DNA of 58,225 nucleotides, counting the filler, from Catajapyx aquilonaris (lineage: Eukaryota): the NCBI GenBank assembly GCA_000934665.2. It is 3 parts of 3 records of this genome, joined end to end, with 100 filler letters (N's around TTAATTAATTAA, not from the genome) between each part and the next. Parts side by side here need not be neighbours in the genome. Positions count along the whole stretch, not along the records: positions 1 to 19,264 come from JYFJ02006501.1; 2 more parts are not named here. One strand, 5' to 3'. Positions within the stretch are counted from its first letter, which is position 1. Each line of letters opens with the position of its first letter. Below the pieces are notes generated by a model. It was not told the origin of the DNA. It saw only the letters and a program-made list of their open reading frames with translations, and searched no databases. This document shows positions 1 to 35,964 of the stretch, piece by piece. The translations under genes and the position numbers were made by a program.

Positions 1-1143
1 CGGCTTTGTGCAGCGGTCCCACTGAATTTCACCTGACCACGTCGGAAGGGGTTGTTGCTCATCTTGTTTCTGGCATCTGCGCCAAAGTGCTTGAATGTCA
101 TAATGGCTCTGTTTGCGTCATTATATGTCATCCATTTCTTCCCCTCACAAAAGTATTCCATGAAAACTACAAGCTCATACTGAACAACCCCTTCCAACAA
201 GTCGTGAGCAATGCAGGGAGGCAAGCCATTAATGACATGGAAGTGCTGAAGTTTATTGAATTGGCTTGACTTCTGAATGGGTTTACGGTTTCAAAGGATC
301 TTGGTATAGTATGATTTGTAAAGCAGTTGGGTTGGCTGCGAAAAATGCGTTACCCTTGTAGCAGGATCCGTCATGTATGTCTAGCAAACTACCTATCTCA
401 AGTGCCCTACCAGTTTCTGCCCTCAAAGTTTCCATATCAATTACTTCCATTAAGGAAGTGAGACTCTTGTGAATTGGAATGTATGCATCTTGGCACTTTC
501 CTGTAGGGATCAAGTTAATGAAATGTGGTGCGACGAACTTCAAGTTGGACTTCAAAAACTTCTGTCTACTGTAGTCTGACCCAAATGGTCCTGATTCAGA
601 ATGCACGTTGGCAAAAATATTGCTGCTCTCTGCGTCTTTCATAATGCTGTCACGGGCATCTGATGAAAATTTGTGCTTAGACATAGCCGCCCTCATTCTT
701 ATTTGTAAATGTCCTTCTGAGATCCTTAAAAGGATACTCACATTATCATAAATGTGTTGTACTGTTTTAGCTGGCACATGTTTCTCAATTTGCAGTCCCA
801 AATAAAATCTGCCAACAGCCCTTTCAAAACAATCTAAGACAAGCCCCTCATTTTGAAGATGCACTGCTTGAAGTGTGGGCAGAAGTACTAGTGGAAGGAA
901 CCACAATGTCACACTCAACACTATCGACATACTCAGCAGGTTCAGCTTGACGACTGACTTCAGGTTCATGCACTTGATGACCAATTACGTAGTCTGATTA
1001 TACATTTAAAGCACTTCCATGCCTGTGGCACCATGTGACTTAAAAGACCCTTTGTTGGAATAGCGCTTGTCACAGCCTTTAAAAGGGCATGGCACGTCAG
1101 TGGTGTGGTTGTGAAGATGATGTTGCAAATGGCACAACAACTG
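1..1143 (-). mobile_element. Decayed CMC/EnSpm-like DNA transposase with N-terminal C2H2 zinc finger, internally deleted
   Basis: Minus-strand translation gives CPFKGCDKRYSNKGSFKSH (about 1035-1095). ORF 283-984 ends LQIILYQD and, after a frameshift, FETVNP. It then jumps directly to SQFNKLQHFHVINGLPPCIAHDLLEGVVQYEL (1-270). These motifs are typical of animal EnSpm-type transposases. Confidence 0.8.
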
Positions 1144-1145
1144 AC

Positions 1146-1680
1146 TTAGGTTATCGCACGTTTTCTCGCATGTGACAACGTGCAGCGCATGGCAACATCT
1201 TCACTGACAATATCTTTTTGCAATTTTACCTCGGTTGAGATCCGTTGCCGGTCTTGTGGCTGCTGGTGCTGGACATCAGCATCTGATTGTCGAAATCCCT
1301 GCAGATGAGATTTGGCTAGCTCATCCAGTTGACATAACTCTGCTGCATTTTGGAGAGTTAGGTCCTCCGTTCTTAGTAGACGTGCACGAAGAGCATCATC
1401 TTGTACGCCGCGTACTATCTGGTCTCGGATCATCCTATCTGTTTCTGTGCCATACTCGCATGCACTTGCCATTTCTCTAAGTTCAGTCACATACGCTGCC
1501 ATAGTCTGCCCTGGCCGTTGGCTACGGCCCAGGAATCTATGGCTCTCATATGTGACGTTTTTCTTTGGTATGAAGTATGCGTCAAATGGAGAGATTACAT
1601 CTAACTTACGATTTTCCTCTGTCATGGTGAAGGTCATAGCGTTGTATATCCTCCTGAGACCTGAGAGAGATTTCATGATA
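1146..1680 (-). mobile_element. Ty3/Gypsy LTR retrotransposon gag fragment
   Basis: FDAYFIPKKNVTYESHRF..RSQRPGQTMAAYVTELREMASACEYG..DRMIRDQIVRGVQDDALRARLL..LTL is a typical Gypsy (Mag-like) gag capsid region. It is truncated on both sides. Confidence 0.85.
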
Positions 1681-1984
1681 AAACGAATGATATATGTGGT
1701 TTTCCTGGAGCTAAGGAGAAGGGGACAAAAATCTGCAAAAAAAAACGGACCATAGGAACAGCTGTAGGGCATGTCGACATATGTCAACAACAGGACTTAA
1801 AGCAGTATTTACTTATTTATTGAGAAGGAAATTTGACAAAACACTTTTTTTTCTCATTTAATCACTGTACTTATACTACATACATACTTACTTAAGAACA
1901 CGTATTACTTTATTGAGAATGGAATTTGGCAAAACCATTCCATTTACTTTTACTTACATTTACTTGAGCAAATTTACTTCTTTA

Positions 1985-2590
1985 TGTAGAATGGAATTTG
2001 GTAAAGCAATTCTTGTTCCCATTCAAGCACAAGAACTTGTAAGCTTGCATTATGAGGGCTTCTTTGTCCTTGTAAAAGGTGCAACGCAGTGGCCTCACTT
2101 GACCCTGGCGGTGGGCTCCCAACCGATGACATCGCTCCACTGGCAGGTTATAGCCTCGATCCAATACACGGTACCGCTTCAGGGTGTCCAGGACCTTCCT
2201 CTCGCAAGCTGCCTAATCTTCGTTCTCGTCCGGTGTTAGGCCGAATATCACAACATTATTCCTCCTGCCCCTATATCCTCCATGTCGGTCAATTGGGTCT
2301 CCAACTGTTCCACTTTCTTCCTTACCATTTTCAGCTCTTCCGTCATGGCAGCCATTTCCGACTGGACTTCCAATTTATGCACCGACAGCGCCGACGAAAA
2401 CACCTGGGTGATGTCTTCTCGCAATCGTACCGCCATCCGTTCCTCGACTTGCTGGAACAGCTTCTCTATCTCGGCTAGGGTGACCCCCATCTTATACAAA
2501 CGCTTTTGACCGACCGGTCAAAAAGGGTGGAGAAAGTATTTCCACTCAACTCGCGGAGCTCGTTTTCAGACGTGTACTCCGTTCAAACAC
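1985..2590 (-). mobile_element. LINE 5' end: 5'UTR and L1-type ORF1p (coiled coil + RRM), frameshifted
   Basis: Coiled-coil ORF 2248-2499 ends LETQLTDMED. After a 2-nt insertion it reads DRGRRNNVVIFGL..LPVERCHRLG..VRP..FYKDKE, which are the RRNN/ERxHR/RP motifs of L1-type ORF1p. Confidence 0.8.
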
Positions 2591-3084
2591 CTCAGGGGGA
2601 GTGTTTCTCGAGGATATTTACTCTTTTCTGTAGTCGGAGTGCCTCTTTTTTACATACTTAGAGTCTACGAGTTCAGTCCTGCGAGATGAGTTCAACCTGA
2701 TCCTGTTGGCCTCGCGCCACCGTGGGTGTCCTATTGGACACACCTGATCCATGTGTGCCATGGTGCTTTCTGTCCTCAGTCCACATGCAGAGTCTGAAGT
2801 AAACCACTTTGATAGTGTAACAGCTGCTTCTATTGTGCTCGAGTATGGTAAAAGGAGAGAGAGGATAAAACGTGTGATGGGTTGGGCGGGCTGTCAAGGA
2901 GTGAAGTGATAACCCAAGGTCGGGAGAGGGGGTGGCATTACACTTAGGTACTCCATCTAGGAGTACATTACACAACAATGAGTATGACAAATGTTGGCTT
3001 GATTGAATTTACAGTTTAATTGAAATCTCAGACCGGTATTTAGACAAGCAGGTTAGTTAGAAAAACTGCGTTTAGATAACTATC

Positions 3085-3128
3085 GCAGTCGACCCGAGTT
3101 TCGGGGCATTGCCCCTCATCAGGACTGC
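3085..3128 (-). ncRNA. Minimal type I hammerhead ribozyme (Penelope/retrozyme type)
   Basis: Minus strand reads GCAGUC-CUGAUGA-GGGGC AAU GCCCC-GAAA-CUCGG-GUC/GACUGC. It has a 6-bp stem I, an intact core, a 5-bp stem II and a short self-complementary stem III (ACUCGGGU). Predicted cleavage is between 3091 and 3090. Confidence 0.85.
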
Positions 3129-3243
3129 TATGAAAGTATGTCTTCCCGGTCTGAATCTTACATTCTTGAATGAGGTGATCAATTTTTTTATCTCTCTATA
3201 AGAAAAATCGTGCATACAAAAAAGAAGGCTAATAATGGGATAA

Positions 3244-3800
3244 TTAGAACACACATATGAAGTCCAGGGAAGATGGAAGGTGGTGTATGTTGTCAGGCAC
3301 GGCTGTTACCGACGTTCTCTTGGATTGTCTGAGGCCGTTTTGCCGAAGTGACTTGGTCAAATTTGTGTACTTATCATACAGTTTGCCCTTTGGCAGGCAC
3401 TTCACACCATTAGTTGACTTTGAAGCTACGTAATAGGTAGTCTGGAAAGGTACAGTTGAAAAGTGAGCTAAAAACATGACAAATTACTATGGGAAAATTA
3501 GAGTAGCATATGATACTAACCTGAAATTCACCAGGCAGGGCTTCGGAAATCCACTGTGCCAGTTCCACAAGTCGAGCTTGCTAATTGATCCTATATAAAG
3601 CAGATGCATCTATTAGCATGAAGCTGCCTCAAGATGAATTTTACAAGCAAATGACACTCTGTGTCAACATTTGACCCAAATTCTGACACAATGACAATCT
3701 CCACCAAATTTGTCCTGCTCGCGGAGTTGAGGCCCAGTTTTTTGTGTCGAGCAATTATAGCCTTTCCTTCCACATGGCTTTCCAGGATTTCTGTCACCAG
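3244..3800 (-). mobile_element. Fragment of the accessory (non-transposase) gene of an EnSpm/CMC-type element
   Basis: ILESHVEGKAIIARH..LNSASRTNLVEIVI and TTYYVASK..PKGKLYDKYTNL resemble accessory ORFs of arthropod EnSpm-like elements. Intron-like AT-rich gaps lie between the pieces. Confidence 0.5.
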
Positions 3801-4053
3801 CTATGCAAACAAACAAATTGACATGGTACAATGAAATTCACACTTTGTGGTTTGTGCTGTACTACAGCACCACATAATGTGACATTGTGAACTGCTTATC
3901 ATACATTGCTCCTTCTTGTTTTTTTCTTGCGAGGTGTCTCATCAGGTCTCAGCAGTTGTGCAAGTACAGGGCTATTCAAAATTAATGCCGGGGTTATTTC
4001 TAAATTGTTTCATTTGTAATAAAATTATGGTATGGTATAATAGTGACTGTTCT

Positions 4054-4421
4054 TCATTCCTGTTCATCTCTTGCTCGCTTAAATCCAGTGTACACGTTGT
4101 CCAGCTCTGGGTAGTGTTCCCTCACTGTTCTCACGACACAGGCTGGTATTACCCGTGTGATGGGACGGCCAAGACGACCATGCATCATGACTGTAAACTG
4201 TCTGTATGCGGAATGCCTGTACCCACTGAGGAAGGAAATTTCACAAATGAGTTCATTTCCCACCAGGAATTGTTAATTGCATGCCTAATTAGTGTATTAC
4301 CGCTTTTCAAACGTCTTTTGTAAATTGGTTTGTCCAGTCTCCCCCTGAGCGCACAGCAAGGTTTGCTGAAGCACGCGTTGGTTGAGACAGAGTAACTGGA
4401 AATCTTCATCACTGTCCACAC
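4054..4421 (-). mobile_element. P2X7 C-terminal 'ballast'/Nanor-like domain fragment (Kolobok KolX-type accessory gene)
   Basis: YRHSAYRQFTVMMHGRLGRPITRVIPACVVRTVREHYPELDNVYTGFK matches the YR.AYRQF..W.HG.LG..R..IP.C.V..IR..YP....Y.GF signature. Confidence 0.75.
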
Positions 4422-4553
4422 ACGACGCTAGTGATAAAGAAAACCTCGTAAGTAATGCACCCAAAATTTAATTCAGAAATGTGTGTTTGGATACACACTT
4501 TCACCTTGCATCCATCTCTAGTTAACACTACACCTCCCCCTGTTGGAGCAAAA

Positions 4554-4920
4554 TCAATCCTTATTCAGAAGGGCGTACAAGGGCTTCATCGTTGACGCCA
4601 AGTGCGGCACAAACTTCGCCACGAAGTTGACCGTGCCTATAAACCTCTTCAGCTGTTGTACATCTGCAGGAGCTGGCATGTCAATGATGGCTCGCGTCCT
4701 AGCTGCATCCGGGTGTACCCCATCCGCGTCCACAGTGTGTCCCAGGAAGGACACGGAGGGTACGGCGAAGAGGCATTTGGCAGGATTTAACGTCATCCCT
4801 GATTTCTGCAGACAAGTCATTACTTTGCGCAGTCGTTCGTCATGTTCTTCTCGGCTTCCACCCCAGACCAAGATGTCATCAACCATGCACACTACCCCCT
4901 CAATGCCTGATAATCCCAGA
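4554..4920 (-). mobile_element. Ty3/Gypsy reverse transcriptase fragment
   Basis: LSGIEGVVCMVDDILVWG..EHDERLRKV..GMTLNPAKCLF..VSFLGH..LKRFIGTVNFVAKFVP covers the catalytic DD motif and thumb region. Confidence 0.92.
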
Positions 4921-5841
4921 GACCCGTCTGGCATCTTTATGCATAGGAACATGTACATTATACTTATGTGCCTGCTATATTTACACATTTCATTTTCATT
5001 AGCAGCTCTCAAACACACTGAATGCCAGCCAGCCAGCCAAGAACTATGTAATTGCTTCCTTTGTTGGGGAGCATGCAGTGGAGGTCATCCCATGTGACTG
5101 GGTCGTACACGGTGGAAAATCTGCAAAATGGCCTGTCGCATGCTCGACAGCCCAAGTAGTCAGATTCATTCAGGCATGCATCAAGCCGGAAGAAGATTGT
5201 CAAGAAATTGCCATTCGCATTCATGCGGGGTCGAGTTCGTCAAAGAAATAATTAATAAGGCCTAATATTAGTGGTGTTACTTCAATCACATGACCTATTA
5301 TGCATGGGATATGAACATCTGACAACTTGCACACAGTCAGCTCTCTACTACATTTCCCTATATTGTTATGGAAAGCAATGTTGAAGGGCATGACTCGTAA
5401 TAGGTCAGCACAATAATACAATACGATTGTGCAATACCTGTACGACACGTACCACATGCGCCCGCAGGTGCTAAGCAGATCCGAGAAGTCCGGGCACGCA
5501 GGTCCAGAGAACTATGGCATCGAAACTATAGGGACGAGGACAGGTGAAATGTAATATTTAAGGAGGGCCGCCTGGCATAGATTTGAGCCCTCCAACCTTA
5601 TCAGGGTTCAAAACCATCGAAAAGACACCCCGTGCTCACCATATGGGTTCAAGCGCACCTAATGCTGCCGCAATGCAAGCGGTGGTCCCAGAATGTAAAT
5701 GAATCCAAATATGTCTTACAAATAAATAGTCCAAGAAGTGGAAAAATAACTAAGACCCTCGGCCCTGAAGGGGACCGGGGGCCAAAGTAAAATGCCAGAA
5801 AAAGAAAGACAAAAAGAAAGGAATACACACTAAAACAGCGA

Positions 5842-6120
5842 AGAACGAGGCAGGTGAACGGCCATTGCCCGGGTCGGATACAGCGGGCCAACGTCGGCCG
5901 TTACATAGCCGGTGAATGTGACTTCGGCCCGATTTTGGGGACAGGTCGAGCCGACGAAGTGTGCTACCTGGGTACTTGTGCTGCAATATGTGCCTCTCTC
6001 TGGTGGCCCTCTTGTGATTATTTACCAGCTCCCTGTTCTTCAGTTTCACCCACCAATTAGTACTCAATATAAACATGCTGTCAATCACCTTTTCCTTGTT
6101 TTCAATTGAATGGATAACAC
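5842..6120. repeat. About 280-bp segment duplicated at 8594-8897
   Basis: Near-identical direct copy. The second copy carries an extra ~24 nt after GCCAACGTCGGC. Confidence 0.9.
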
Positions 6121-6661
6121 ACTCCAACTACTTTGCCTGGAGAAGTTTCCGTTACTAGTGGACACATTTGGCCAAGCATTGACAACGTCCTTGCTCAAAA
6201 AAGCAAATTCTGCTTTAGTATGAAACCCATCCCTTACTGCAAAAAGTGGCAACCCATGATCAGATCGATACAGTTCCAATAGACGTGGCCACAGAGCGGT
6301 GAGGTGCAAGAACATTTCCGAAATACGTGGTGGAGTGAGATTTTGATTCTCGCAAAGCTGATATACTTCTCTGAGTTCATCATCCCTCGCATCCATAAGG
6401 ATGCTCCACCTACGTGAAACCTGGGGTATGTTTGCTAAAATTCCTAGAAATTTCTTACTAGTAAGTGCAATGGTCACCCTGTCTAGCAAAAATAGCCCAC
6501 TTGCCTGCACGGGAGTCGGCATGGGATTCGGTACAGTTGTAGGAGCCGTCAGAAGGCCTGAATCAAGGCATTGTGCCGTAGATGTACAGCCCCCTTAGGT
6601 GAGGCTGGCAGAGTAACAACCCTTTGAGGTAAAGGTTCAAAATGCATAGCATTACCCTGTG

Positions 6662-7919
6662 TGTAACACTGTTCCCCAACTCATGGTTGGTTTAGTTTAG
6701 TTAGAGGTTAGGTTATATGCCATTAAGACCGACACACCACTGGCTACACGAGCCACACTGTCACCTCCTCTTTAATCCTAGGAGGCTGCTTTATCTGCAA
6801 GCACGGTTGGTTAGGTTAGGTTAGATATAGATTCCAGCCGGTTGTCCACCACCACCGGGCTCTCTCCCAAAGGCCCAGAAAGCTTAGGGCGGTCGCCCAC
6901 GGGCTCGGTTCCCAACCGGCCTCACAGGCCCCGGACCGGCCCCTCAACCGGCCCGGGTAGAAACTAAAAAGGGTGGTTTTTGGACCGAGCAAGTCGGTTG
7001 ACTACTGCACCCAGCTACCAGCAGAAGCCCATCCAACAGGGCGTTCGCTCGGGGGTGGGTTGGTTTCTGAATATATGTTGTATAGGCCTTCTCCACAGTG
7101 TGACGCCAGGTTTAGAAGTAGTTATAGGTAAAGTTAAAGGTGACCAAAGAGTGTGGTGTTGTTGGTGCACCTGCCACGATTCGGGCTTCCGCTAACCTTG
7201 GGCTGGTTAGTGAGAGGGAAGCTCTTATTAGACTGTTGTTCAGGTTACCTCTTCTTGCCAAGACTGTTAGGTTCGGATATTAGTGCGACGCAGTTGCCTG
7301 CTGGCCCTAATATCATCTGCCTAGTCAGTGTATGTATGGGCGACGCAGATGCCTGCTGGCCCATCCATGACACGTGACTGGTCAGTCTTGACTGGTCGGT
7401 GTATATCTGGGCGACGCAGATACCTGCTGGCCCTGATATGACACCTGTCCCTAATTACTGAGTAGTCCTGAAAGGTAGGAGTAAATAATACAACAATGGT
7501 CTGTGTATTGATCGGGTCCTGAGCTCTGCTAAGCTGGTCAGCGCCTTTCTGAGGTGTTGCCTCATCAGAGGCTGGCGACTGACTCCGCCTTCTCTGGAGG
7601 TGTTACCTCCTCAGAAGCTGGCAAGTGACTGACTCCGCAGGCTCAGTGCACCTCCTTTTATAGTCAAGTTTTGTTGACAAAAGCATGACAACAGAAATAT
7701 ACAAAACCATGGAACATCAACAACAACTAAGAAACAAATGAACAAGACATGACAACAACAATAACAAATGAACAGCATATAACAAGAACAAACAACATGA
7801 ACGAAACAATTGAATAACACATAACAAGAACGATCAACAAGAATAAAACAATTGAATGACATTGAACGAGAACAACAAACATGAATCAAACAATTGAATA
7901 ACATATCCTGGGCATTACA
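6662..7919 (-). mobile_element. Possible solo LTR-like element
   Basis: TGTAAC...TTACA ends, minus-strand TATAAAAG at 7655-7662 and internal short repeats. I found no TSD, PBS or PPT. Confidence 0.35.
7690..7905. repeat. Degenerate ~42-bp A/C-rich minisatellite
   Basis: AACAATTGAA recurs at 42-nt spacing, with related AACAAATGAA units upstream. Confidence 0.7.
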
Positions 7920-8138
7920 ACAGTTTTACTGATTTTTACGATGGAGGAAGGGTGTCACTTTCTCCCCAGTTTGATACTTATACGGAAGAGGAAAGATTGA
8001 TTGGCTTCCTCCCCAGTTTGATGCTTGTACGGGGGAGGAAGGGAAAAAGGAAGACCTTGAACAACTACAGTACCTTTTGTCTGAATATATGAACAACTAA
8101 AATACCCTTTTGCGACGCATTTTTATGAATTCTCCGGT

Positions 8139-8178
8139 TCCCGACCGGTTTCGCTTTGTGAGAAAAGCTCGTCAGGGA
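8139..8178 (-). ncRNA. Minimal type I hammerhead ribozyme motif with degenerate stem I
   Basis: Minus strand reads UCC-CUGACGA-GCUUU UCUCAC AAAGC-GAAA-CCG-GUC/GGGA. The core is intact, stem II is 5 bp and stem III is the palindrome ACCGGU. Stem I has only about 3 bp. Confidence 0.7.
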
Positions 8179-8364
8179 GTATAGGGTGCACATATGTGGG
8201 CTAATTTATACCTCTAATAACTAATTACTCATTTTTTCACAACATACCTGGTGAGGCCGACCAACTTACAGCTCTCACCTGGGGGTTTTCCTCAGGACCC
8301 CACCCCCCAGGTAATAAGGCTAATGCCGTGCAAAAAGAATACAGCTGGGTCAGATTTTAAAGTA

Positions 8365-8500
8365 CAGTGAAACCTGTCAAGTTGGCCACCTCCCTGTGTT
8401 GGACATTATTTTTGGAACATTGGAAAAGCCTTTCCCTTACATTGACTTACAATGTTGCTAAGTGGGACACCTGCTAGAGTCCTGAGTTTCAGGCAAATGG
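8365..8500. mobile_element. Tigger/pogo-like MITE terminus (one end only)
   Basis: TA followed by CAGTGAAACCTGTC, a typical TcMar-Tigger TIR start. I saw no matching second end. Confidence 0.45.
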
Positions 8501-8899
8501 CCATTTAGTGGAGTGGGGGAGCGCGGGAGTCCGGTGATGCGCGCGCATATAGTCGGCGGGATCTTGGCCAGACATCGGGCCCAATCGCGCCGATGAACGA
8601 GGCAGGTGAACGGGCATGGCCCGGGTCGGATACAGCGGGCCAACGTCGGCGCTAGACCGGCTACGTCGCGTCGGCCGTTACATAGCCGGTGAATGGGACT
8701 TCGGCCCGATTTTGGGGACAGGTCGGGCCGACGAAGTGTGCTACCTGGGTACTTGTGCTGCAATATGCGCCTCTTTCTGGTGGCCCTCTTGTGATAATTT
8801 ACCAGCTCCCTGTTCTTCAGTTTCACCCACCAATTAGTACTCAATATAAACATGCTGTCAATCACCTTTTCCTTGTTTTCAATTGAATGGATAACACAG

Positions 8900-9520
8900 C
8901 CTTATTCCTCCAACCACCTGAAATCAAGACTCTCTAACACGGCAGTGGTAATGGCTGTCTTCACACCATCAATGTGACCTTTGACATCTAAAAATTTATG
9001 CACCTGAAGTACACCAGCATGGATTGTCTCAACCAACGGAACACTGGGATAAGTAAGGCAGTCTCTGCTGTCCTTGTAGGCCCTACTCTAGGCATGAAAT
9101 TTCTAGATGGCAAAGGTAATCTCTAGTGGCACGAGTGAGGGTAGATCGGCAGCCATCACAGCTGCTGTTTTGGAGCAGTCTCCGAGAAATGAACCCACTT
9201 ACATAGCCCGTTGACAGCATTTCAGATGAGTCCTGTCCCAGCTCCCCAATTTTGGCATTTGTAGCATCATCAGTAAGAACATCATCAACAGAGATGCTGG
9301 CAAGTGGTGTGTCAACTGGTTCATTCCATTAATCTTCCGTACCAACATCTGAGAGAAGTGTTTGGAGATTACACAGAAGTGTGTAACCATCAGCCAGGCA
9401 ATTGGTAACCATCAGCCAGGCAATTGGTAGCATGCAGGTCGCGGCTAACCAAGCCATTGATGATACAGGTCTTCAGCGCATCCCCAAACTGACCCACTGT
9501 GGGATTATACTGTACTGCAT
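8900..9520 (-). mobile_element. P-element/THAP9-like transposase C-terminal fragment
   Basis: Minus-strand frames read YNPTVGQFGDALKT..TNCLADGYTLLCNL..GYVSGFISRRLLQNSSCDGCRSTL..LTYPS. There is a 22-nt tandem duplication near 9385-9430. Confidence 0.75.
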
Positions 9521-10434
9521 AATATCAACATACATGGGTCATTCTAAATTTACTCCCAGATCACTTGTGGAAGTAATTTTCCTTTGTCACAATTATTGCA
9601 TTTGTGGATGTGGTTTAAACTGAAACAAATAGCTGAAAGCATAGATAAATATATACATACAAACAAAAAGACCTTTGAGAACACATGTTGGTGTTCAAAA
9701 AGACCTCTGTTACTGGTAGATGGTAAGAGGTTACAGTCAGTACCATATGTAATATATATATTGAAGGCAGGATTGTTTTGATTAAACTGTCAGTCAAATT
9801 ACCTGATAGTGGTACCAAATCTATATTGTGAGATAATTATGGAATTTTTCCAAAATCTCAACATAAAGGCTAATCTTTGGTAACATAAGTTACGGGATAC
9901 AAGACACTCATCTGCAAAATAGTGTAAATCATTCCACTGTACTTAATGTTCACATCAAAATGGTTACTGTAATTGTTTGTCGCCTCCTAAACTTCCCTTC
10001 TGTTCAGTACTGCCGTCAGCAGGTAGAGAACCGTAACTCAATATCCACTCCCCTTGCGAAGTTGGGCCAGTTTTGCATGCGGATGAAGTGTTATCAATAC
10101 GGCCAGCATAAAGTGTAGCAAATATCGAATATTTATTTATTTATCACATTGATTGTTTATCGCATGTCTGACATTTCTCTAATTGTAAGTATCACAGAGT
10201 ACAAATAGATTAATGGCAATAAATTCCTTCTGCATAACATACGGTATCTAAAACATTGGATTAGGCCAACTGAGTCTATGTGAGTTTGGTCAATCATTTT
10301 CATTATTCATTATTACACTAACGGCATAAACAAAATTGCACTAAACACTTGTCTCCTTCATCTGGCCGCGCCGGCTTCACCCACATCTGAATGCGAATTC
10401 AGTTCTTCCTAGCTCTTAATCGTCCACTGAAGAA

Positions 10435-10930
10435 TTAGCCCGGTCGGAGATGCTTTGTGCTGACGGCCAAGTTCTGCCAGAACTGAACACTGCGTGGCTC
10501 CATCAGTTTGCCCAGAGCCTTGACAATCCCGTCCCTCTTAGCCTCAGATACACCTCGCGGAATATGTCGCTTCTTGGCAGGTGTTGAAATGCCGGCTGCA
10601 GTTGTGGACAGAAAGTCCAGCTCCTCGAAATGATCTGTGTCAGCATGCTGGCTTCTTTTAATCATAAGAGTATAGGCCCCCCCCTCTTTGCTATCACACA
10701 CACAGTGTCACCCATGTATACACTCGAGGTTTCCGAGTTGCCAGCTTCTTTTTGAGAAGAATTGTCTGGCCAGTCGTAGAAGTCACCTACTTCCATCTTC
10801 TTTACTGTGACTTTGCCAGAATGGGCTTTACTGACAGCCTCCGAAAATTGCTCAAAGTCACATCTTTTTCATTGACAGCTCCACTTGATGGTGGAAGCTG
10901 TCAGCAGACATAAATGTATGTCCGGGCGGG
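10435..10930 (-). mobile_element. Sola-like DNA transposase C-terminal fragment
   Basis: PGHTFMSADSFHHQVE (10880-10927), then PRGVSEAKRDGIVKALGKLMEP..FWQNL. Confidence 0.6.
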
Positions 10931-11450
10931 TCAATGGGTCGTATGTGTGGCTTTTGGACCTTAAAGTACTATACAGTGTGTTGTCTGTAACTCGGTAATT
11001 TTTTCACGTGAATATTTCAATTTAATCAGAATTTGCATGAGAATCTTCTCACTCTGGTTAGTGTGTGTCTCATTGCAGAGAAGAAGCTGTACTTCCAACT
11101 CCGACTTCTCCAACTGCTCTGCCATTAAAAGACCTGGAATTGCTCTGATTTGCTTGTTCTTCTCCTCCATAGTCCACTTTCTAACAATCCTGTTGTTGGA
11201 CAAGTTCCTGTATGGAAAAATAAGGAATATGCACATAAGTTATTATTTATTTGAACTGGGGAACAATTGTCAAGGTTATATTAGTCAACAGCAACTGTGG
11301 TACTTGAACAACATTTGGCTGATATTAGCCCCATGTTGTTCAAGTCACTTGCTATGCATAGGTTTGTTCAGATACTAGGTTAAATGGAATCATGCCATTT
11401 TGATATATTGGTCAATTATTTCTTTTCACCCACTATAGGCTGACTGGGTG

Positions 11451-12825
11451 TCAGTGTGATGAGCCGGTTATGCAATTGTGGATTATTGGCACGATGATGT
11501 AGCAGTCTTGGCAGCTCTCATCCCGTGTCTCATTTACGGGGAATGCAATGCATTTTCGTGTTGTTGGTGTTAGTTTCCTGCCCGAGCGCTTGCGTGACAG
11601 TTCACTGGCAACGTTGCACTTAATTTTGGAGGAATCAAATGGGTGGGTGTAGAGTGGGTTTTTCTTCCTTGAAAAGCTGCACAATCAATGAAAAGCTACT
11701 TATTGTGGAAGAGGCCGTCGTTTTCAGGATGTTGGTTACTTTCCCAAATTATTCACTTTCCAGCAGCACGAAACAATCAGGGTTATTAACAGACAGGGTC
11801 TGATTTTGGAAAACCAAATCCTTCACCTCCTCCCCATGAACTTCTCCTCCAAGATATTTGTTGCCCATGCCAGGAACTATTTTAGTATTTTTCTTGCAAT
11901 CAGTTGATCGTGGTGCTCCGCCATCTTGTGCTCTTTCACCTTTTCGGACAATCTTCGTATAACACTTGTGCAAGGGGACGGCTAGGCGTTCTAACAAGCT
12001 TCTTCAGTTGGCCCAAGTATGTTTCGAATGGAAAGGCATCTGGACCGTACATTTCTGGCACTTCCTGGACAAATGTTTGAAGAGGTTTCTCAGATAAATT
12101 CACGTATCCATCAATTTTTACCCGTTCTGGATCGCACAAAATAGAGATGCCCACATTAAGCAGCAGAAAGTGTTTGTACTGCCTCCTGGCCAAAACATGG
12201 CGCAGTGCAACAGGGCCGGAGTACAGTAGAAATAGCCTCAGTTCCGTTGCCTTCCATCGGTCGACATGGTCAAGAGATCTAGGCTTCCGGCAGAATTCTG
12301 CTGGTATATGCGGGGCCAATGACACAAGCCTGTCGGATATTTCTTGAGCTGCTCTGTGACCAATCCTTGATGAATTAGGTCCCCTAAGTCACACCTTCAC
12401 AAGCAATCTCTTCGTGACCACAAGGCATACCAAATTCATGTGTTCAACGGGGACACGGCTTACCAGTGGCAGTCCAATGTCTGTCAATGGTGAGACACCA
12501 ATATGGTGGTGCTTGTTTTCTTGATTAAGGAAAGATGCGTCTGTTCTTTTGTTGGCGTTAAGTTTTGGGAACACAAGTCTCCTTAGGTTTCCCTTTCTGG
12601 TCACACTTCTCGCACCCATAATAACCTGTGTGGCCCTTGATGCACTTGACAAAGTCCCGGGCAGGAGCATCATATATTACCATCTCGAAAGTTACTTTAT
12701 ATTTCTTTCCTTCATGAGAAAAACCGTCACACAGAATTGTGCGAAGCGGTGTCACCAAATCATCCAGAAAATGGTCAATTGAGTCAGGCTTACTTTTCCC
12801 ATGATATAATGCTACTCGGCAGGTA
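11451..12825 (-). mobile_element. Second, different CMC/EnSpm-like transposase remnant
   Basis: ALYHGKSKP..DAPARDFVKCIKGHTGYYGCEKC..RTDASF..HH.GVSPL..HMNLVCL..PAEFCRKPRSL..RWKATELRLFLLYSGPV..AFPFETYLGQLKKLVR across several frameshifted ORFs. Confidence 0.9.
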
Positions 12826-13612
12826 TTCTTGAGTAGGCCTCCATTGCCGAGACCCCCCCCCNNNNNNNCCCCCCCCCCGAAGGGCGGCGAAATCTTGGAA
12901 GTCTTTGTGGCCAAGGCTTGGTATAATTTGTATCCCAAGAAATGTTTTGGATACAGGGCTTCAATCTGCCAATTCTCTATTGGGCCTATGCATAGTGGGG
13001 GGTTGTCACTCATCACAGAACACAAAGCCTGTTTTAAAGGCATGCCAGCTATATTCCACGCTATAATAGACCGTGGAGTTAACTGTAAACTCGCGGCACT
13101 ATGCACTGGGGTCACGATTGCTTGTAAGTTCACTAGGGATGTGGTAGTGAGCAAGGTAGACGGGGGGTCTATAAACAACATCTGAGGTGTTGGTCAAGGG
13201 TGTAGGGACGGCTTCAATGTTCGTCTCATGATCAATACTCGGAGGGCCACTGGGAAGCGATCACTTTTTTGTTGCTGGCACCCTCGATGTCTAGTCACCG
13301 GTCCTACTCATCTTGTTGGTGGGCCTCGCGTCCATTGGAGAGCATGACGGGGCTCGCTTGTTTAGGTGAACATTTCCGGTCCCGTTGTCTGGGTATCTTC
13401 CTCCCCACCGGTGGCACTTTGAGGGGGTCCCTCGAGGGTGACAAAACTGCCCTCCACCTTGAGCTTGTCACGTCGGGGAGACACCATTTTCCCCTCTTCC
13501 ATGAGTTTACGTAGATGAGGGATCAGCTTCCTACTTTTTCCCCTTGTTTCTGGGGAAAAATCCTCTGAGATCGAGATTGGGGTAGACTTCAGCTTGTGTG
13601 CCATCTTGAAAA

Positions 13613-13808
13613 ACCAGAAACTTCCTTATGTCACCAGTTGACACATTTACAATTTCCACTTGGACTGTGTTCAAGTCCTGTTCTACGGCCTCTCGTCCCA
13701 GCACAACCTGGCTAAGAAGCAGACTGGCTGGCAGGCCCTGCTTCTTGGGTAGCCACGTGCACTGCTTCTTCTCGGAGGTCAGCGTGACTCGTCCCCAAGA
13801 AGCAGCAG
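13613..13808 (-). pseudogene. Nucleoplasmin-like core-domain fragment inserted with an 8-bp direct repeat
   Basis: Flanked by CTTGAAAA at 13605-13612 and 13809-13816. The minus frame reads SWGRVTLTSEKKQCTWLPKKQGLPASLLLSQVVLGREAVEQDLNTVQVEIV, resembling the nucleoplasmin/NLP N-terminal core (GVTL..E...TW...L..KQ.LLG.EA.E.E.N.V.V). Confidence 0.65.
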
Positions 13809-14046
13809 CTTGAAAAGCGCGTCCCTGTCCTTAGAACGAGCACTTGAAAAGAATAGGTCGAACACCTCATGGACGGTACCGACCTATATGGTGGGTGCCA
13901 CCGTATAGGTCGGTAGCGTCCATGAGGTTCAATGGGGAGCGTTGGATTCGATGGTAAAGCGCCGTAATTTACCGGGGCTGTCGATGTCTTTACCTCCGTT
14001 TTCCCCTACGATTCTTGCTCATCCGGGGACAGGCCGTAGACCACTA

Positions 14047-16898
14047 CTCTGTAAATTTCTTTGAGTGGTTTTTAGCCCCATTTGAGTGATTTTTCACTCA
14101 ACCTTCACCTTAAAATTGGAAGCAATCAATTAGAGTTGTTTACTTGAGCACTTTTATGTCGCTCAAAATGTGAGCATTACTTGAATCAGTTTGAGCACTA
14201 CGTGACTCTATTTGAGTAAAAATTCTTCTCAATTTGAGTATTCTCAACACCTCAAATTTGAGTGGCTTACCTTCACTCGAATTCTGTGCGATCCTATCCC
14301 TAACCTTTTTCCTACAATACTTAGAATTGTTGCAGTATCACTACGAAAGGTTCATTAAGATAAACATGTATTATTTTCTCCATCATAGCGCTTATAATGG
14401 TTTAACTCGAAAATGGGCCACTTCATCAAAAAAGCAGAATTTATAATAGCAATACTGCAGCAGTCTTGCCATATATATGCAACACTATAAAATGTGCTGC
14501 ATGAATTCTTAGCAGCAAATAAATACAACACGTAAATAGGCCAATACCATTTATTAAATGTTCATATTATTTACATTTATACAACCAAATAACTCTTCAT
14601 GAGCCCTGGGGCTCCTTTCCGTATCAAAGACAATAATAGCATTATTGAAGAAAGTCAAAAACATGGATTTATAATTATAATTTGATCAATTTTATTGACT
14701 TTCTTGAACAGTAGGCTACTACATTGTGGTCTTTCATATATCAAAGACCACAATAGTACTGTTCAAGGAAGTCAAAACAATTAATCAAATTATAAGTACT
14801 GGTAACATAAATGTGACAATAATACCTATTAAATGTTCACATTGTTTATACAACCAAATAACTCATCATGGGCAGCCCTGGGCCTCTTTTCCATATCATT
14901 AATCCCACAATAGTAGTATTGTTCAAGAAACTCGAAAAAAGAATCAAGTTTTCACATAGTTTATGTTGAAGATGTGGTGCACTTTGATTAATAGGACCAA
15001 TGTTCCCACTTCCATTAATTTATGATCCAGGACCAAAAAGTATTTCTGTGGGGTTTTAATTGATCCACATACCAGAATGTATGGCTGAAGCAGCCCATCA
15101 CTTTTGTTGGCTGCCACCTCTTCAATATTTTCACCCACCTGAAGAACAATAATCCGCATTAGACCTTTACTATACATCAATAAAACATGGTTGAATGCAT
15201 GAATTCCACACATTTTAAAGCTAATTTTGCCTAATGAAAAAGTCATTGATATTAGAGAGCCTTATTGATATGCTAAGGATAATATTTTGTTATATCATGC
15301 TGTATTTCTGGAAAAAAATATGCCACTTGAACATTTATGCTTCCTTGCGTTTGTTACTTACCGGAACATATTTCGCTAGCGCTGTCCTTTTGACAGCCTT
15401 GCTTGACCTTCCCTTGCCTTTCCTTTTCCTTTACTTGGTTTCAAAAGCTCTAGCAGCAAAAAAAAAAAAAAAAACCTGCTTGCATGCCTCCTGCTGATAA
15501 AAACCATGCAGTCATATATCCAGATATGTAACTTAATTCATATAATAAAAGGCAATGAAATACCGTCAGGAATGTCACACACTTCCAACATAAGCTCGGG
15601 TTTGATTTTCTGCACATATTATGCAATTTGTGGCTCGGTTGAGCCTGCTGAATTCCTCATCAATCTGCAAGAGACAAATCTACAACATGCTGCACAAAAT
15701 AGGTAATATTATGTCATAAATTAGTGCACACCAAATAAGGATCCCTGTGTAACCCAAGCACCTGGGATATTTTTTTTTCCAAAATAATCTGTAATAGTTA
15801 AGGCTTTCTGCACTATTTCCTTCTGCCTGCTGACATGCGTTGATTCCGTGTACTTTGTCATTTGTTCCATGTTAGACAGGATTGGAGGAGAATACTTCAT
15901 CCAGTTGACCTTTAATGATGAACGTTAACAATAGTCACAATTCGCAGAGTGCACTAACTTAAAAAGAGGACGAAACATGATAGGTTCGTATATTATTTGG
16001 TGGTTGACAAGGTCACTTGAACTCGAGCGGCGGCAAATGAAACGATTTTTTATTTTATTTTCCTGAAGGGAAACGTGCATATAATTAGCGTTTTGCCATG
16101 CGGTGCGGGGGGAGGAATGCCACTCGGTGCATACTGTATGAGTTACACCAGGTCTATATTAGGGTCAATAATATGGGCCGTCAAAAGCGGTCAGAAGTGT
16201 CCAAGCTGGCGTGCAATCTGCCCTATATGATAATGCCCATTACAAACATCATTTCAAATTCATGCAACTCACCTGCTAGTTTTTGCAACACTTCTTTCGG
16301 GATATCCCGGTCCGGCTCGAGACTGCAGCACCTCAACCCTGCTACCCCAAGTTCTTCCATGGTGTAAGTGATTGCAGGCCGGATCACGAAATATGATGGA
16401 TGATGCGACAGCCCGCAATAGCCAATAGGGCAGTGGTCGAGAATGACGCAACACTGTACACCTCCGACTCGGACTAAGCATGGCGGATCTCTGATAATGC
16501 CGAATAGTGCTTACGTTTTCCTACAATTTGTGCTGCTCAGTACCTCCCTTGCTAACACGACAACTGACACAATACTCCCGCACTCTCCCAAGCAGTACAC
16601 ATGTGTACCTATTTTGTCACACAAACAATGGAACAAAAATGGATGTAATTATAGCAACTGCGGCACCCTAACCCTCTTGCGTATCATTGACGCGGCCAAA
16701 ACTCTAATTGAATGGAAAAGAACTAAAGGAGTGCAAAAGTTTGAGTGATAATCCTAGATAATTCACTCGTCCCTTGAGTTAAATGTGAATGCATTTGAGT
16801 GGGTAGTACTCACATTCCCCTTGAAAACTACTCAAATCGAGTAATTAACATCATTGCTCAATTATTGAGCGATTTTTCACTCAAAATATTTTACGGAG
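14047..16898 (-). mobile_element. Non-autonomous EnSpm/CMC-like TIR element (2.85 kb) carrying a decayed accessory gene
   Basis: Imperfect TIRs CTCTGTAAATTTCTTTGAGTG / CACTCAAAATATTTTACGGAG with TA on both sides and dense TTGAG/CTCAA subterminal repeats. The minus-strand exon QPYILVCGS..YFLVLD..KVHHIFNINY..FFEFLEQ lies at 14900-15140. Confidence 0.8.
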
Positions 16899-17279
16899 TA
16901 CATTGCTTCGCCGATCCCTGTCCTCCATGTCGACCAACCTTGTCTCCAGCGACCTGATCCTGTTGTGCGAGTCGGAGAGTTGGAAGCCCAAAACTTCAAC
17001 TTGGTCCTGGAGGTCTTGTATCTTTAGCGCTGGCTCCTTGGATTTTTCAGTAATGATCTTGGTAAGGTCCGCCTTTAGCTTCTCTGCTGATCCCTGGACT
17101 GCATCCTGGAGTTTGCGTTCCAATTTTCCTTCCAGAGAATCAAGCGGAGTCTGCATCTCGTCCTTAGTTATGCCCATTTTGACCGCACGTGTGGAAAATT
17201 GCGGGCAAAAAAAAAAAAGAGACCACAAAAGCGAAAGTGTAGCCACTTTACGGGAGCTAAAGAAATAGGCTGCTCTCTC

Positions 17280-19264
17280 TCGAAGCTATAGGAGCGAAGT
17301 GATATCTCCTTTTAATAAAATGCAAGGCCAATTCCAGGCATGCCCCCAAGGCTACGAACACATTGGATGATCTCCGACGGCTCCGAATAAAGCCTCCTTT
17401 CATTATTCCCTTAATGACAAGTTTAGGATGTGCGGACGCAGTCGTCACATATTGTATAGCAGCTGTAGGCTTTGTAAACAAACAAAATTCAATTTTTACA
17501 GGATTCGCAGTTATGTAAATCTGATGGTCCAGGAACCTAGCCATCTTTCCAATATCCCCTATAACCACCTTTAAGCCAGTAAGGTCATTAAACTTTTCCA
17601 CAAATTCCAATACGGTATCCCTCCAAGCCACAAAAAGATATCTAAAAAATCGTTTATAGCACGAAATATTACCAAAATTGCTACCAACAAATTCCGATTC
17701 GAATTTGTGGAAATAGATATCCCCCACTAATGGTGAAAGGGCCCCGTAGGTACTCCTTTGATTTGGCTGTATATAATCTGAAAGCTAATAGTAGTGGCTT
17801 TTAAATAGATATCTAATAGTTTTGAGAATGTAAGCACATCCATTTTTCTGAAATTTTTTCATTATTAAGTCATAAAAAGTTTATAACTTCCTTTTTAAGT
17901 CTTTCTAGAGGCAAACTGGGCTTCCACGTCCAATGTGGCAAGTACCATATCTGGCAAAAATTCTTGTGGTAATTGCGTAATAATCCCTGTAAGTTCATCA
18001 GGATTAAAAAGCCGGTATTGCACATGTCTCATAAGAGGTCTAAGCACCAACAGTAGCACGTCGTTCACTCTGCAAGTAATACTTCTCATACCATGAATTA
18101 TAGGTCGAACTGTTAGCTGTGAAATGTCGTTTGCAATTTTATGAAGTTTAGGCATAGAATACAAAGCAGGGACGACATATTTTTGACCATAGGGATTTTT
18201 ATCCCCCTTAAACAAGACATGTTCTTTACTGAGAAATGGCCAGTTTCAATATTCTTTTTAGATTGTAAGACAAGGCAGCACCAAAACCTCATCATTTCCC
18301 GACGAATACTTTCCAATTTTACATTGAACCACCTTGTCCCACCCAGGACATGTGCAATCCTAACATACGATCAAGAATTTAGGTGTTGAATCGTTTTTGT
18401 CAATATACATGTCGGAGTCCATTATGGTCAGGCCAGCATTTTTATCCGCAGGTTTGAACACTATTTCCTTCCCATTAAATTTATAAAGTCACTTCTCTGC
18501 ATCCAGAGTAGCAGTATCCTTCAATGGTGGTGCTTTTCCCATAACAGCCGCAACATACAATTCATCCTTAATTTGACCCATTACAAAATGCTCTGGATAT
18601 AGGATATTGGCTTGGGAACTTATCATACCCACATAGTTTTTGTGCAAACAACTTCTTGTTCTTCCCAAGGGAAGTTTGAATCACATCTCTTTTTTCCGAT
18701 GCTTTTATGGTGCCATGTAACCAATAATGTTCTATTTTTTGGGTTCAAGGTCACGCCAGCTACTGAGAGATTTGAATGGGTACTAGGAAACTGCTGTTTT
18801 TCTCGCATCAAGGGGAAGTGGCCAAAAACCGAAAGGTTGTGTCCCGCTTCCTGGCAACCATAGCAACAAGCCTTGTATAATGATGCTGATATAGATGATA
18901 GAAATATATGCGTTACCATGGGTACCCTATATATTTGCCCTGATGTTGTCTGTGGAGTCACCATGTTCTACTGTGATTGCATAGACCTTTGGTATGACAC
19001 CCTGGCCGAATTCGTGAGAGGGAGCGTGCCTCGCAGGATTGTTGCTTGCCGGTATATTCACGAATTATTTATAGTTAAATGGGGAAAACTACTGCGCGAG
19101 GCACGTCCCCTGAAAAGAATGCATCAGCTGTTGGAGCAGCCCACAAGGCTGCATCCGAATTAGTAGCACGTCACGTGATCGCGGTATCGCCTCTTACGGA
19201 GTACTACCGCCATCGTCACTGTTCCAAACCGCGAGTTCCAAACCTCCTGTGTCCTGCTCAGGTC
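17280..19264 (-). mobile_element. Penelope-like retroelement (PLE) reverse transcriptase, decayed
   Basis: IVFKPADKNAGLTIMD (18405-18465), LYSMPKLHK..VRPII, LATLDVEAQF, SQIKGVPTG, FLDHQI, LFTKPT..SAHP..KG. The assignment of 18620-19264 as the N-terminal region is less certain. Confidence 0.85.
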
Positions 19265-30948: not shown

Positions 30949-30954
30949 AATAAA
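30949..30954 (+). promoter_or_regulatory. Candidate polyadenylation signal ending a ~2.1-kb 3'UTR
   Basis: AATAAA just before the switch from unique-looking sequence to repeat-rich DNA. Confidence 0.35.
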
Positions 30955-31140
30955 CGAGAATTCACATGTTGAGGTGCAGACATGAATTTTATTATTGCGC
31001 TTCCGCAGTTACCTTTTCCTCTGGTCAGGCGCTGGTCAGGCAATTGACATGTTCGTTATAATATGCTTTGCCATGTCTCCTATCACCTATCGTCCATAGC
31101 ATGGAAACCATGATCCATAAACAAAATCATAATGATCAAT

Positions 31141-31510: not shown

Positions 31511-31612
31511 TCAATTGAAAATTATGATAGCCTCATTGTGAAACTGCCAAGAAAGATTTATTCGTCCTATAGGCCTACTTTGTTCAAGCCGGGCTAGCTG
31601 ATATACAGGCGG

Positions 31613-31990: not shown

Positions 31991-32089
31991 AAGCCAAGAG
32001 CTAATCTTGATATTACATAATTATATACTCACATTGTTCACCTAGAACACATATAAATTATATCATTTCCCAAAGCGAAGCAGTGGTAG

Positions 32090-35790: not shown

Positions 35791-35964
35791 TATATCCTAG
35801 TATTCCTTGCACGGAAATTGAAGTTAAATAGAAAACTGTATGGTGGTCTGCCACCCCCCGAAAGGCCCATAGAGGGCCATCAAGGGGTACGTAAAATAAA
35901 AAATAATAATTTTTTTTAAGGAGGTTGAAACCTCCTTAAATTTGGCCCAGCATGCCTTTCAACC

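Follow-up and report, generated by a model that had tools for sequence, protein, structure and literature searches.

A strand-coherent patchwork of decayed mobile-element remnants in Catajapyx aquilonaris, a candidate uni-strand piRNA source locus

Introduction

When the remnants of unrelated mobile elements lie side by side in a single orientation, is the DNA that holds them a uni-strand piRNA source locus, or is it ordinary repeat debris that resembles one? The question is raised by a window of 58,225 nucleotides from the genome assembly of Catajapyx aquilonaris (the whole stretch of DNA analysed here, filler included), in which N runs join three contigs. The first of these, contig 1 (positions 1-19264; 19,264 bp), is open at both ends, and a sequence-only reading had proposed it as a flamenco-like uni-strand piRNA cluster. 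Established examples of uni-strand clusters that carry antisense inserts come from Drosophila (PMC10643416) and from mosquitoes (bioRxiv 10.1101/2022.08.22.504762), and, in the available part of the former account, flam-like loci are defined by LTR/Gypsy enrichment together with a Gypsy-driven strand bias and span 227-1085 kb (PMC10643416). Herein we characterize the pieces of contig 1, assess their co-orientation and weigh the explanations that could account for it.

Results and discussion

Contig 1 is a patchwork of decayed mobile-element coding remnants without genes: a Pfam search of its ORFs revealed no intact host gene anywhere along the 19 kb, and its pieces are diverse, decayed, truncated and co-oriented. 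Ten features were supported by tools or by direct reading of the sequence, namely two transposases, a Ty3/Gypsy reverse transcriptase (RT), a gag-like ORF, an RT-like ORF, a P2RX7_C domain, a nucleoplasmin fragment, two coiled-coil ORFs and a hammerhead motif; every one of the ten is on the minus strand. Within contig 1, TRF detected no telomere-type array, ARAGORN detected no tRNA-like SINE heads, and neither a promoter nor an upstream gene is in view. The sole Rfam match at gathering thresholds was a tRNA in contig 2.

The longest remnants are transposases of probable EnSpm type. An EnSpm/CACTA-type transposase remnant at 11454..13193 (minus strand), which lacks approximately the first 220 residues, was delineated from homologues, tblastn and a family HMM. 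It has 43 homologues of ~700 aa (best E-value 2.6e-32), one of which carries DUF4218, a domain that we take to denote EnSpm; tblastn with these homologues covers 11939-13043 on the minus strand only, and the family HMM aligns over positions 222-676 of 677 across four minus-strand ORFs. Pfam returned nothing for any of six full-length homologues, nor did it find EnSpm domains in the ORFs of the window. At 3..1200 (minus strand), phmmer, tblastn and a family HMM identified what is left of a transposase of ~890 aa whose N-terminus bears a C2H2 zinc finger; the remnant has lost an internal segment near 286-290 and is truncated where the contig ends. Its 283 relatives of ~890 aa (phmmer, E<=1e-3; best 1.4e-19) include 150 that were used for tblastn, where matches occurred at this remnant only and on the minus strand. 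The corresponding family HMM matched at positions 89-137, 203-386 and 543-631 of 914, Pfam gave only a weak zf-C2H2 match, and a search with 286-984 (minus strand) for longer homologous proteins found none. By hhalign, the two transposase families are remote homologues (probability 96.9%), which supports the sequence-only reading in its assignment of both remnants to EnSpm transposases.

Among the retroelement-type pieces, the best resolved is a fragment at 4557..5084 (minus strand) that comprises the C-terminal RT motifs and the connection. It matches RVT_1 (E 1.5e-9; profile positions 149-205 of 205), and its best PDB matches are the Ty3 RT 4OL8 (8e-15) and the Ty3 Gag-Pol 7Q5B (4e-14), so that this Pfam and PDB evidence assigns it to a Ty3/Gypsy-type RT, as had been predicted. 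A 216-aa ORF at 1149..1796 (minus strand) is gag-like according to Atlas, whose nearest clusters bear Retrotrans_gag, Ty3_capsid and zf-CCHC, at a score (0.91) that serves as a lead only; no Pfam or PDB match was obtained for this ORF, and the Gypsy gag proposed earlier is thus retained as a lead and not as a confirmed gag. The relative order of the two pieces was described correctly: read 5' to 3' on the minus strand, the RT piece comes first and the gag piece second. Further along, an RT-like remnant at 17260..18488 (minus strand) was recognized through Atlas for its 17260-17784 portion (score 0.95, 170 shared features), where the clusters carry HTH_animal (51-93%) and RVT_1 (19%), and otherwise through motif reading. 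The ORF 17260-17784 gave no Pfam or PDB match, and the remnant may be Penelope-like, a label taken from motifs recognized by eye.

There are also two coiled-coil ORFs. One, with its downstream pieces, occupies 1985..2517 (minus strand) and resembles LINE ORF1 by eye, a putative label taken from its motifs only; the other lies at 16884..17285 (minus strand) and is related to the 2251-2517 portion of the first (BLASTP E 5e-7). The coiled-coil ORF at 1985-2517 had no Pfam or PDB match, while for 16884-17285 no near-length homologue was found and Pfam yielded coiled-coil noise only. More generally, the candidate ORFs that the sequence-only reading had called P-element, Sola, LINE or Penelope-like gave no Pfam, PDB or near-length homologue match, and its label of EnSpm accessory genes likewise found no confirmation.

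Two fragments carry domains that are not of the mobile-element type. A frameshifted P2RX7_C-domain remnant at 4057..4467 (minus strand) is matched by Pfam at 4057-4272 (PF20478, E 3.8e-9; profile positions 144-192 of 192), with 4300-4467 added by eye only, and a nucleoplasmin-core fragment at 13534..13830 (minus strand) matches PF03066 (E 8.2e-7; profile positions 4-62 of 102). Both the P2X7-like domain and the nucleoplasmin-like fragment had been recognized from the sequence, and both are borne out. With an open frame on the minus strand, a repeat at 5839..6121 recurs in direct orientation at 8591-8898 (blastn, 89% identity over 308 bp), and the second copy, together with the open frames upstream of it, forms a minus-strand stretch (8461..9328) that looks like a transposase C-terminus by eye. 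Neither 5839-6121 nor 8461-9328 gave a Pfam or PDB match, and the PDB matches of ORFs 9086-9328 and 6088-6594 were absent or spurious.

The tenth feature, read directly from the sequence, is a type I hammerhead ribozyme motif at 3086..3131 (minus strand). Both conserved core boxes are present, helices I, II and III measure 6, 5 and 2 bp, respectively, helix III carries a 4-nt loop, and the cleavage-site residue is a C; the fold of the motif has a z-score of -3.0. The same architecture is described for metazoan type I hammerheads in the available part of a previous report (PMC4209133). The motif fits every type I core position and is, by motif reading alone, a predicted ribozyme; Rfam found no hammerhead in contig 1 at E<=5. 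A loose hammerhead-core pattern occurred at 3 sites, not significantly more than the 1.77 that chance would give, and only the site at 3099-3122 stands up, since those at 3923 and 7546 do not match the core. Of the two hammerheads claimed previously, one is therefore kept and the second is not confirmed.

Taken as a set, the transposases, the LTR-type RT and gag, the RT-like ORF, the ribozyme and the two domain fragments cannot be explained by one interrupted element. Long DNA contigs span the joins from one piece to the next at 10123-14074 (one contig in X4), 16818-18765 and 1797-2824, so the mosaic is present in the reads, and because these contigs have ordinary depth, a multi-copy composite element was set aside. 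Ordinary depth characterizes the stretches 1797-4980, 10123-14074 and 16818-18765. The oriented coding remnants have a depth of ~20-45, whereas in the same runs other stretches reach summed depths of 200-1000 (a rough indicator and not a copy number), which suggests that close copies of these remnants elsewhere are few or absent. Any piRNAs derived from the remnants in contig 1 might, for that reason, be without present-day targets.

The strand bias was examined with methods of differing symmetry: the large-database searches were seeded from minus-strand ORFs only, whereas Pfam, the family HMMs and the composition test treat both strands alike. In a total of 213 ORFs of at least 45 aa (107 plus and 106 minus), Pfam returned three credible matches, all on the minus strand, and thus none among the 107 plus-strand ORFs of contig 1; relaxing Pfam to E<=1 on 110 ORFs added only noise. 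The HMMs of the two transposase families, run over all six frames of contig 1, matched the minus strand and not the plus strand. In the composition test, nine minus-strand ORFs versus two plus-strand ORFs exceeded 99% of the null, and both of the latter are trivially explained. Seven of the ten plus-strand ORFs of at least 100 aa are antisense shadows of minus-strand features, and the other three had no PDB sequence match. The earlier statement that every orientable piece of contig 1 reads on the minus strand consequently holds for all ten supported features, but it does not extend to several labelled pieces that lack confirmation, and the oriented part amounts to ~7.2 kb of 19.3 kb, leaving ~60% of the contig without orientation, including the stretches of high summed depth at 5145-5787, 7074-9002, 9646-10288, 14147-16718 and 18648-19264.

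How much weight this pattern can bear depends on its probability. Before multiple-testing correction, chance co-orientation has a probability of 0.002 for the ten features (2 x 0.5^10) and of 0.03 for the six strictest. The figure of 5e-4 put forward initially was too strong, because it assumed 12 independent, securely oriented insertions and ignored the number of contigs scanned. Neither of our own values survives correction across hundreds of scanned contigs, and the co-orientation evidence from contig 1 alone is modest. Contigs 2 and 3 had been offered as a contrast in orientation, and we rejected them as a control: they are genic (Pfam on 148 ORFs of at least 70 aa found ABC-transporter exons and no TE domains) and so provide no baseline. 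The long ORFs of contig 2 are themselves acidic, serine-rich and of low complexity, and have no match in contig 1.

These numbers bear directly on the strongest rival to a piRNA source locus, namely that contig 1 is ordinary TE-rich intergenic or heterochromatic DNA of no dedicated function, whose co-orientation arose by chance and was picked post hoc from a very large scan. At P = 0.03 or 0.002, a few such contigs are expected in a large scan, and both the pieces labelled earlier that Rfam, PDB and homologue searches left unconfirmed and the ~60% of unoriented sequence fit this explanation. Ten of ten pieces in one direction is still improbable for a single contig, however, and the composition test, which treats both strands alike, likewise favours the minus strand, so that we consider chance rather unlikely while taking it seriously.

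Returning to the candidate piRNA source locus, comparison with known systems shows where the resemblance lies. Like flamenco and the flam-like loci, contig 1 stacks decayed, truncated fragments of many unrelated TEs in a single orientation and contains no host genes among them, as far as the available part of the published account describes those loci (PMC10643416). The same source presents them as proven piRNA sources, whereas contig 1 is known from DNA alone, and gives them lengths of 227-1085 kb, as against 19 kb visible here with both ends open, and a location away from centromere and telomere (PMC10643416). They are also LTR/Gypsy-enriched, while two of the ten supported features of contig 1 are Gypsy-type and its longest remnants are EnSpm-type transposases (PMC10643416). 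On composition, the name flamenco-like is consequently not upheld.

The core uni-strand clusters of mosquitoes, in the part of the work available to us, are likewise unidirectional arthropod clusters in which foreign sequence is trapped antisense, and they are driven by read-through with no promoter of their own, which would fit a contig 1 without visible promoter features (bioRxiv 10.1101/2022.08.22.504762). They differ in being defined by small-RNA and chromatin data and in being rich in viral fragments (bioRxiv 10.1101/2022.08.22.504762). No viral fragment was found in contig 1, and no upstream gene is in view there.

Ordinary nested-TE graveyards, whether pericentromeric or intronic, also consist of old, truncated and mutually interrupting remnants with high-depth repeats interspersed. 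Such graveyards are normally of mixed orientation, in contrast to contig 1, where ten of ten orientable pieces read on one strand. The best explanation of contig 1 is that it preserves at least 19 kb of a larger, strand-coherent graveyard, in which old remnants of several unrelated mobile-element classes have accumulated.

Whether such a graveyard feeds a piRNA pathway is a further step. The defining products of a uni-strand piRNA cluster are abundant 24-31-nt, 1U-biased small RNAs from one genomic strand, or a long single-stranded precursor that starts at a defined promoter or arises by read-through. The trait of such clusters that DNA can show is the one-strand layout of diverse TE remnants, which contig 1 has (ten of ten minus, none plus), and we put contig 1 forward as a candidate uni-strand piRNA source locus of a known kind, a reading that we find quite possible if somewhat short of probable. 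From the layout we infer transcription of contig 1, its direction and any small-RNA output. In its most likely role, contig 1 would belong to a transcription unit that is active on the plus strand alone, and the resulting long transcript would be antisense to all of the elements archived in contig 1 and would be processed into piRNAs, with selection keeping those insertions that lie antisense to the direction of transcription. A broader version, about which we are more doubtful, is that contig 1 may be one of many uni-strand piRNA loci in this animal that archive mainly DNA transposons and Penelope-like and LINE-like elements, and not Gypsy-type endogenous retroviruses.

One orientation could also be left by selection against sense splice and poly(A) signals if contig 1 lay inside a long intron, lncRNA or read-through unit of an ordinary gene that makes no piRNAs. 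The 19 kb without an intact host gene and the two open ends are compatible with such a position, and an orientation bias of intronic retroelements is well known. That bias is moderate and not complete, however, and it is weak for DNA transposons, whereas both EnSpm-type remnants of contig 1 share the common orientation; moreover, no flanking exons are in view, and we judge this explanation improbable. We regard as very improbable indeed a mosaic made by RNA- or repair-mediated capture (e.g., RT template switching) in which transcript pieces were joined head to tail: internal coding fragments do abut or overlap by few bases (the nucleoplasmin fragment at 13534-13830 against an open frame at 13365-13625, and the end of the RT-like ORF at 17260 against the start of a coiled-coil ORF at 17285), and non-TE-type domain fragments (nucleoplasmin and P2RX7_C) do occur among the TE pieces, but the poly(A) tracts or target-site duplications that would betray such events are absent, known chimeric retrocopies come nowhere near 19 kb and more than ten pieces, and deletion and nesting explain the truncated pieces equally well, so that capture is not required.

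If the broader version is true, the flamenco-type one-strand antisense archive would, beyond flies and mosquitoes, be a general line of defence that is spread over many loci and covers every TE class. Should small RNAs confirm the candidate locus, strand-polarised TE archives would be predictable from the genome sequence, which would aid the annotation of piRNA source loci in animals without small-RNA data, and such archives would draw on DNA transposons no less readily than on retrovirus-like elements. If chance or an intron effect is responsible, contig 1 is ordinary repeat debris.

Two further repeats, neither of them assigned to a strand, are interspersed among the oriented remnants. The first is a non-coding element of 825 bp at 7095..7919, recognized from reads by its 5-bp flanking direct repeat and its high summed depth (190-590, versus ~20-45 for the long contigs over the coding remnants); a contig that joins 7094 to 7920 with five shared letters was recovered in all four DNA runs, which come from one sample and study, and tandem arrays lie at 7542-7630 and 7714-7906. 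The second is a palindromic MITE-like repeat at 14530..14938, delimited by inverted and direct self-matches, which plant miRNA models match on both strands, far below thresholds (Rfam, E<=5).

Coding remnants of contig 1

Contig 1 was surveyed through every stop-free ORF of at least 45 aa on both strands (n = 213; 107 plus, 106 minus) with Pfam at E ≤ 0.01. Three matches lay above the curated cut-offs, all three on the minus strand: P2RX7_C (4057-4272, E 3.8e-9), RVT_1 (4557-5084, E 1.5e-9) and Nucleoplasmin (13534-13830, E 8.2e-7). Matches below the cut-offs, namely Rsa3 on a plus ORF, weak C2H2 fingers at 1009-1200(-), and Apc1_MidN, KIF21A and DNA_pol_viral_C on minus ORFs, look like noise, and loosening Pfam to E ≤ 1 for the 110 ORFs of at least 62 aa (52 plus, 58 minus) yielded only additional coiled-coil and DUF noise. 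The best solved relatives of the RVT_1 piece are Ty3 RT (4OL8, E 8e-15) and Ty3 Gag-Pol (7Q5B).

Two further remnants derive from transposases. For ORF 11939-12388(-), a homologue search gave 43 proteins of roughly 300-720 aa with a best E of 2.6e-32, and DUF4218 is present in a single one; no Pfam family was found in six full-length homologues, and tblastn of all 43 against the whole window gave matches confined to 11939-13043 on the minus strand. For ORF 286-984(-), a word-indexed search for longer homologues returned nothing, and exhaustive phmmer retrieved 283 relatives at E ≤ 1e-3 (34 at E ≤ 1e-10), with a typical length of about 890 aa. Twelve of these showed weak zinc-finger matches only in Pfam, and the matches of the best 150 of the 283 within the window were confined to 3-1200, again on the minus strand. 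One HMM per transposase family was then run against the whole window, translated in six frames into 1,492 ORF pieces. The first aligned over positions 222-676 of 677 along 13193 down to 11454, and the second over positions 89-137, 203-386 and 543-631 of 914 along 1200 down to 3, both on the minus strand; from the position gaps of the second, remnant 3-1200(-) has lost internal sequence and is truncated where the contig ends. On the plus strand the two HMMs matched only twice, both times in contig 2 and without significance (E 0.023 and 0.42). In profile-profile comparison the two families align over 307 columns (hhalign probability 96.9%, E 1.8e-10) and, judged at this level, are remote homologues, which makes the earlier description of two EnSpm transposases a reasonable one; the EnSpm name itself is provisional, taken from the one DUF4218 match and the association of that domain with EnSpm. 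Both families (about 700 and about 890 aa) are widespread in animals, the second with 283 clusters at E ≤ 1e-3, and almost none of their members has a Pfam match, which looks like a gap in the domain libraries for this superfamily.

Among the remaining minus-strand ORFs, 1149-1796 adjoins Retrotrans_gag/Ty3_capsid clusters in the Atlas, a protein-cluster resource (0.91, a lead), and 17260-17784 adjoins clusters carrying HTH_animal and RVT_1 (0.95, 170 shared features). The coiled-coil ORFs 16884-17285(-) and 2251-2517(-) are mutually related (BLASTP E 5e-7); calling them LINE ORF1 is only a reading of motifs, and a search seeded with 16884-17285(-) found no near-length homologues. The sequence-only reading had placed every orientable piece on the minus strand. 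This holds for all ten supported features, with none on the plus strand. The P-element, Sola, LINE, Penelope-like (PLE) and 'EnSpm accessory gene' labels found no support in Pfam and PDB searches of candidate ORFs. What had been read as a pair of 'accessory genes' is perhaps the contig's sole internal repeat, 5839-6121 against 8591-8898 (89% identical, direct orientation), whose open frame is on the minus strand.

A hammerhead was not detected in contig 1 by Rfam even at E ≤ 5, and a loose hammerhead-core pattern hit three minus-strand sites, not above chance. Read directly, 3086-3131(-) contains the two conserved core boxes, the cleavage-site C, and helices I (6 bp), II (5 bp with a 3-nt loop) and III (2 bp with a 4-nt loop), every element fitting a predicted type I hammerhead motif; the type I motifs of metazoans have been described with the same architecture (PMC4209133, in part). 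Of the two hammerheads proposed earlier this one is retained, and the sites at 3923 and 7546 were rejected as not matching the core.

The plus strand of contig 1

Ten plus ORFs reach at least 100 aa. Seven of them mostly overlie minus-strand features and are antisense shadows, and the other three are without a Pfam or PDB match. In a database-free strand test that scored amino-acid composition against shuffled sequence, the 99% null level was exceeded by nine ORFs on the minus strand and two on the plus strand; one of the latter two is the shadow of the transposase at 3-290, and the other holds a lysine run from an A17 tract. The large-database searches were seeded with minus-strand ORFs only, and the coding remnants span about 7.2 of the 19.3 kb. 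The A17 tract (15458-15474, plus), at which the contigs of all four DNA runs break, might be a plus-strand retroposon's tail and would then be the sole exception to the minus-strand rule; no retroposon body could be defined there.

Read depth and repeats

Reads came from four DNA runs of one sample, quite possibly the very data behind the assembly, and are thus no independent support for contig 1. Depth of about 20-45, with long contigs and few mismatches, was found at 1797-4980 (four contigs, which leave 3249-3616 and 4188-4344 uncovered), 6092-6845, 10123-14074 (spanned by a single contig in X4, one of the runs) and 16818-18765. These long contigs bridge junctions between neighbouring remnants, which shows that the reads themselves contain the mosaic. 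Summed depth reached 200-1000 at 5145-5787, 7074-9002, 9646-10288, 14147-15432 and 18648-19264, a rough indicator rather than a copy number. By this rough measure the coding remnants that could be oriented resemble relics of which few close copies exist, and the unoriented non-coding stretches appear to have many close matches among the aligned read contigs.

One high-depth stretch is palindromic (14530-14938). Its near-perfect hairpin (14672-14798) matches the plant miRNA models MIR396 and MIR2084 on both strands, far below thresholds, and resembles a palindromic, MITE-like repeat more than a miRNA gene. A 5-bp direct repeat flanks an 825-bp non-coding element of high summed depth (7095-7919). 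In each of the four runs a contig passes straight from one flank to the other, with five letters shared at the joint, which fits an empty site, or a paralogue, of an insertion that duplicated 5 bp. Within this element also lie two 46-bp units in tandem, whose hammerhead-like boxes are degenerate, and an A-rich 42-bp array.

Explanations of the co-orientation

Ranked first, and still tentatively, contig 1 is by its layout a candidate uni-strand piRNA source locus. Transcription of such a locus would run along the plus strand, and the TE fragments archived in it would be antisense to the transcript. If the coding relics are without close copies elsewhere, piRNAs made from these relics would find few targets today, which argues mildly against a currently effective archive.

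Chance together with ascertainment ranks second, a possible but rather unlikely explanation. The earlier chance estimate of 5e-4 assumed 12 secure, independent insertions; for the ten supported features the chance of one shared strand is 2 x 0.5^10 = 0.002, and the six strictest (two transposases, RT, P2RX7_C, nucleoplasmin and hammerhead) give 0.03, both being single-contig figures before allowing for the number of contigs read. The evidence of contig 1 is by itself suggestive and no more, and we regard the co-orientation as probably non-random.

Ordinary orientation-dependent selection within a long intron or a non-coding transcription unit comes third and seems unlikely, since such selection in introns rarely produces a complete bias and scarcely touches DNA transposons. 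Mechanical capture, for example by RT template switching, would account for internal pieces that abut without termini, but is required by nothing in the data and is very improbable.

As a candidate piRNA locus, contig 1 can be set beside the uni-strand loci already known, the Drosophila flam and flam-like loci (PMC10643416, in part) and the mosquito core clusters, which are uni-strand and driven by read-through (bioRxiv 10.1101/2022.08.22.504762, in part). The proposed likeness to flamenco extends to strand polarity only: flam-like loci are defined by Gypsy enrichment and span hundreds of kb (PMC10643416, in part), whereas two of the ten features of contig 1 are Gypsy-type, and its 19 kb are a visible piece that permits no comparison of size. 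As a working analogue, a generic mosquito-type uni-strand cluster comes closest, and contig 1 adds, at best, another example of a known locus type. Its value lies in single-copy stretches (1797-4980, 10123-14074 and 16818-18765), which would permit unambiguous mapping of small RNAs.

Contigs 2 and 3

The window of 58,225 bases comprises contigs 1 (1-19264), 2 (19365-38614) and 3 (38715-58225), linked by paired 44-N runs. Contigs 2 and 3 are genic, and Pfam found no TE protein domains among their 148 ORFs of at least 70 aa, so they provide no baseline for TE orientation. Their repeats do occur in both orientations, as had been stated, self-comparison giving direct and inverted copies. In contig 2 the long ORFs are acidic, serine/threonine-rich and of low complexity; the plus-strand frames of 700 aa (20436-22535) and 1043 aa (23961-27089) have no Pfam family and no match elsewhere within the window, and probably represent very large exons encoding a disordered host protein. 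A tRNA at 36071-36142(-) in contig 2 (36.3 bits) is the sole Rfam match at gathering threshold in the window. The only Pfam matches of these 148 ORFs are ABCA-type transporter exons on the minus strand of contig 3, R1_ABCA1 (39638-39961, E 1.6e-4) and ABC_tran (46080-46295 and 48467-48985, E 2.5e-8 and 7.9e-20). Within this ABCA gene region lie two palindromic self-matches, of 2.2 kb at 88% (40691-42913) and 0.57 kb at 84% (53870-54441).
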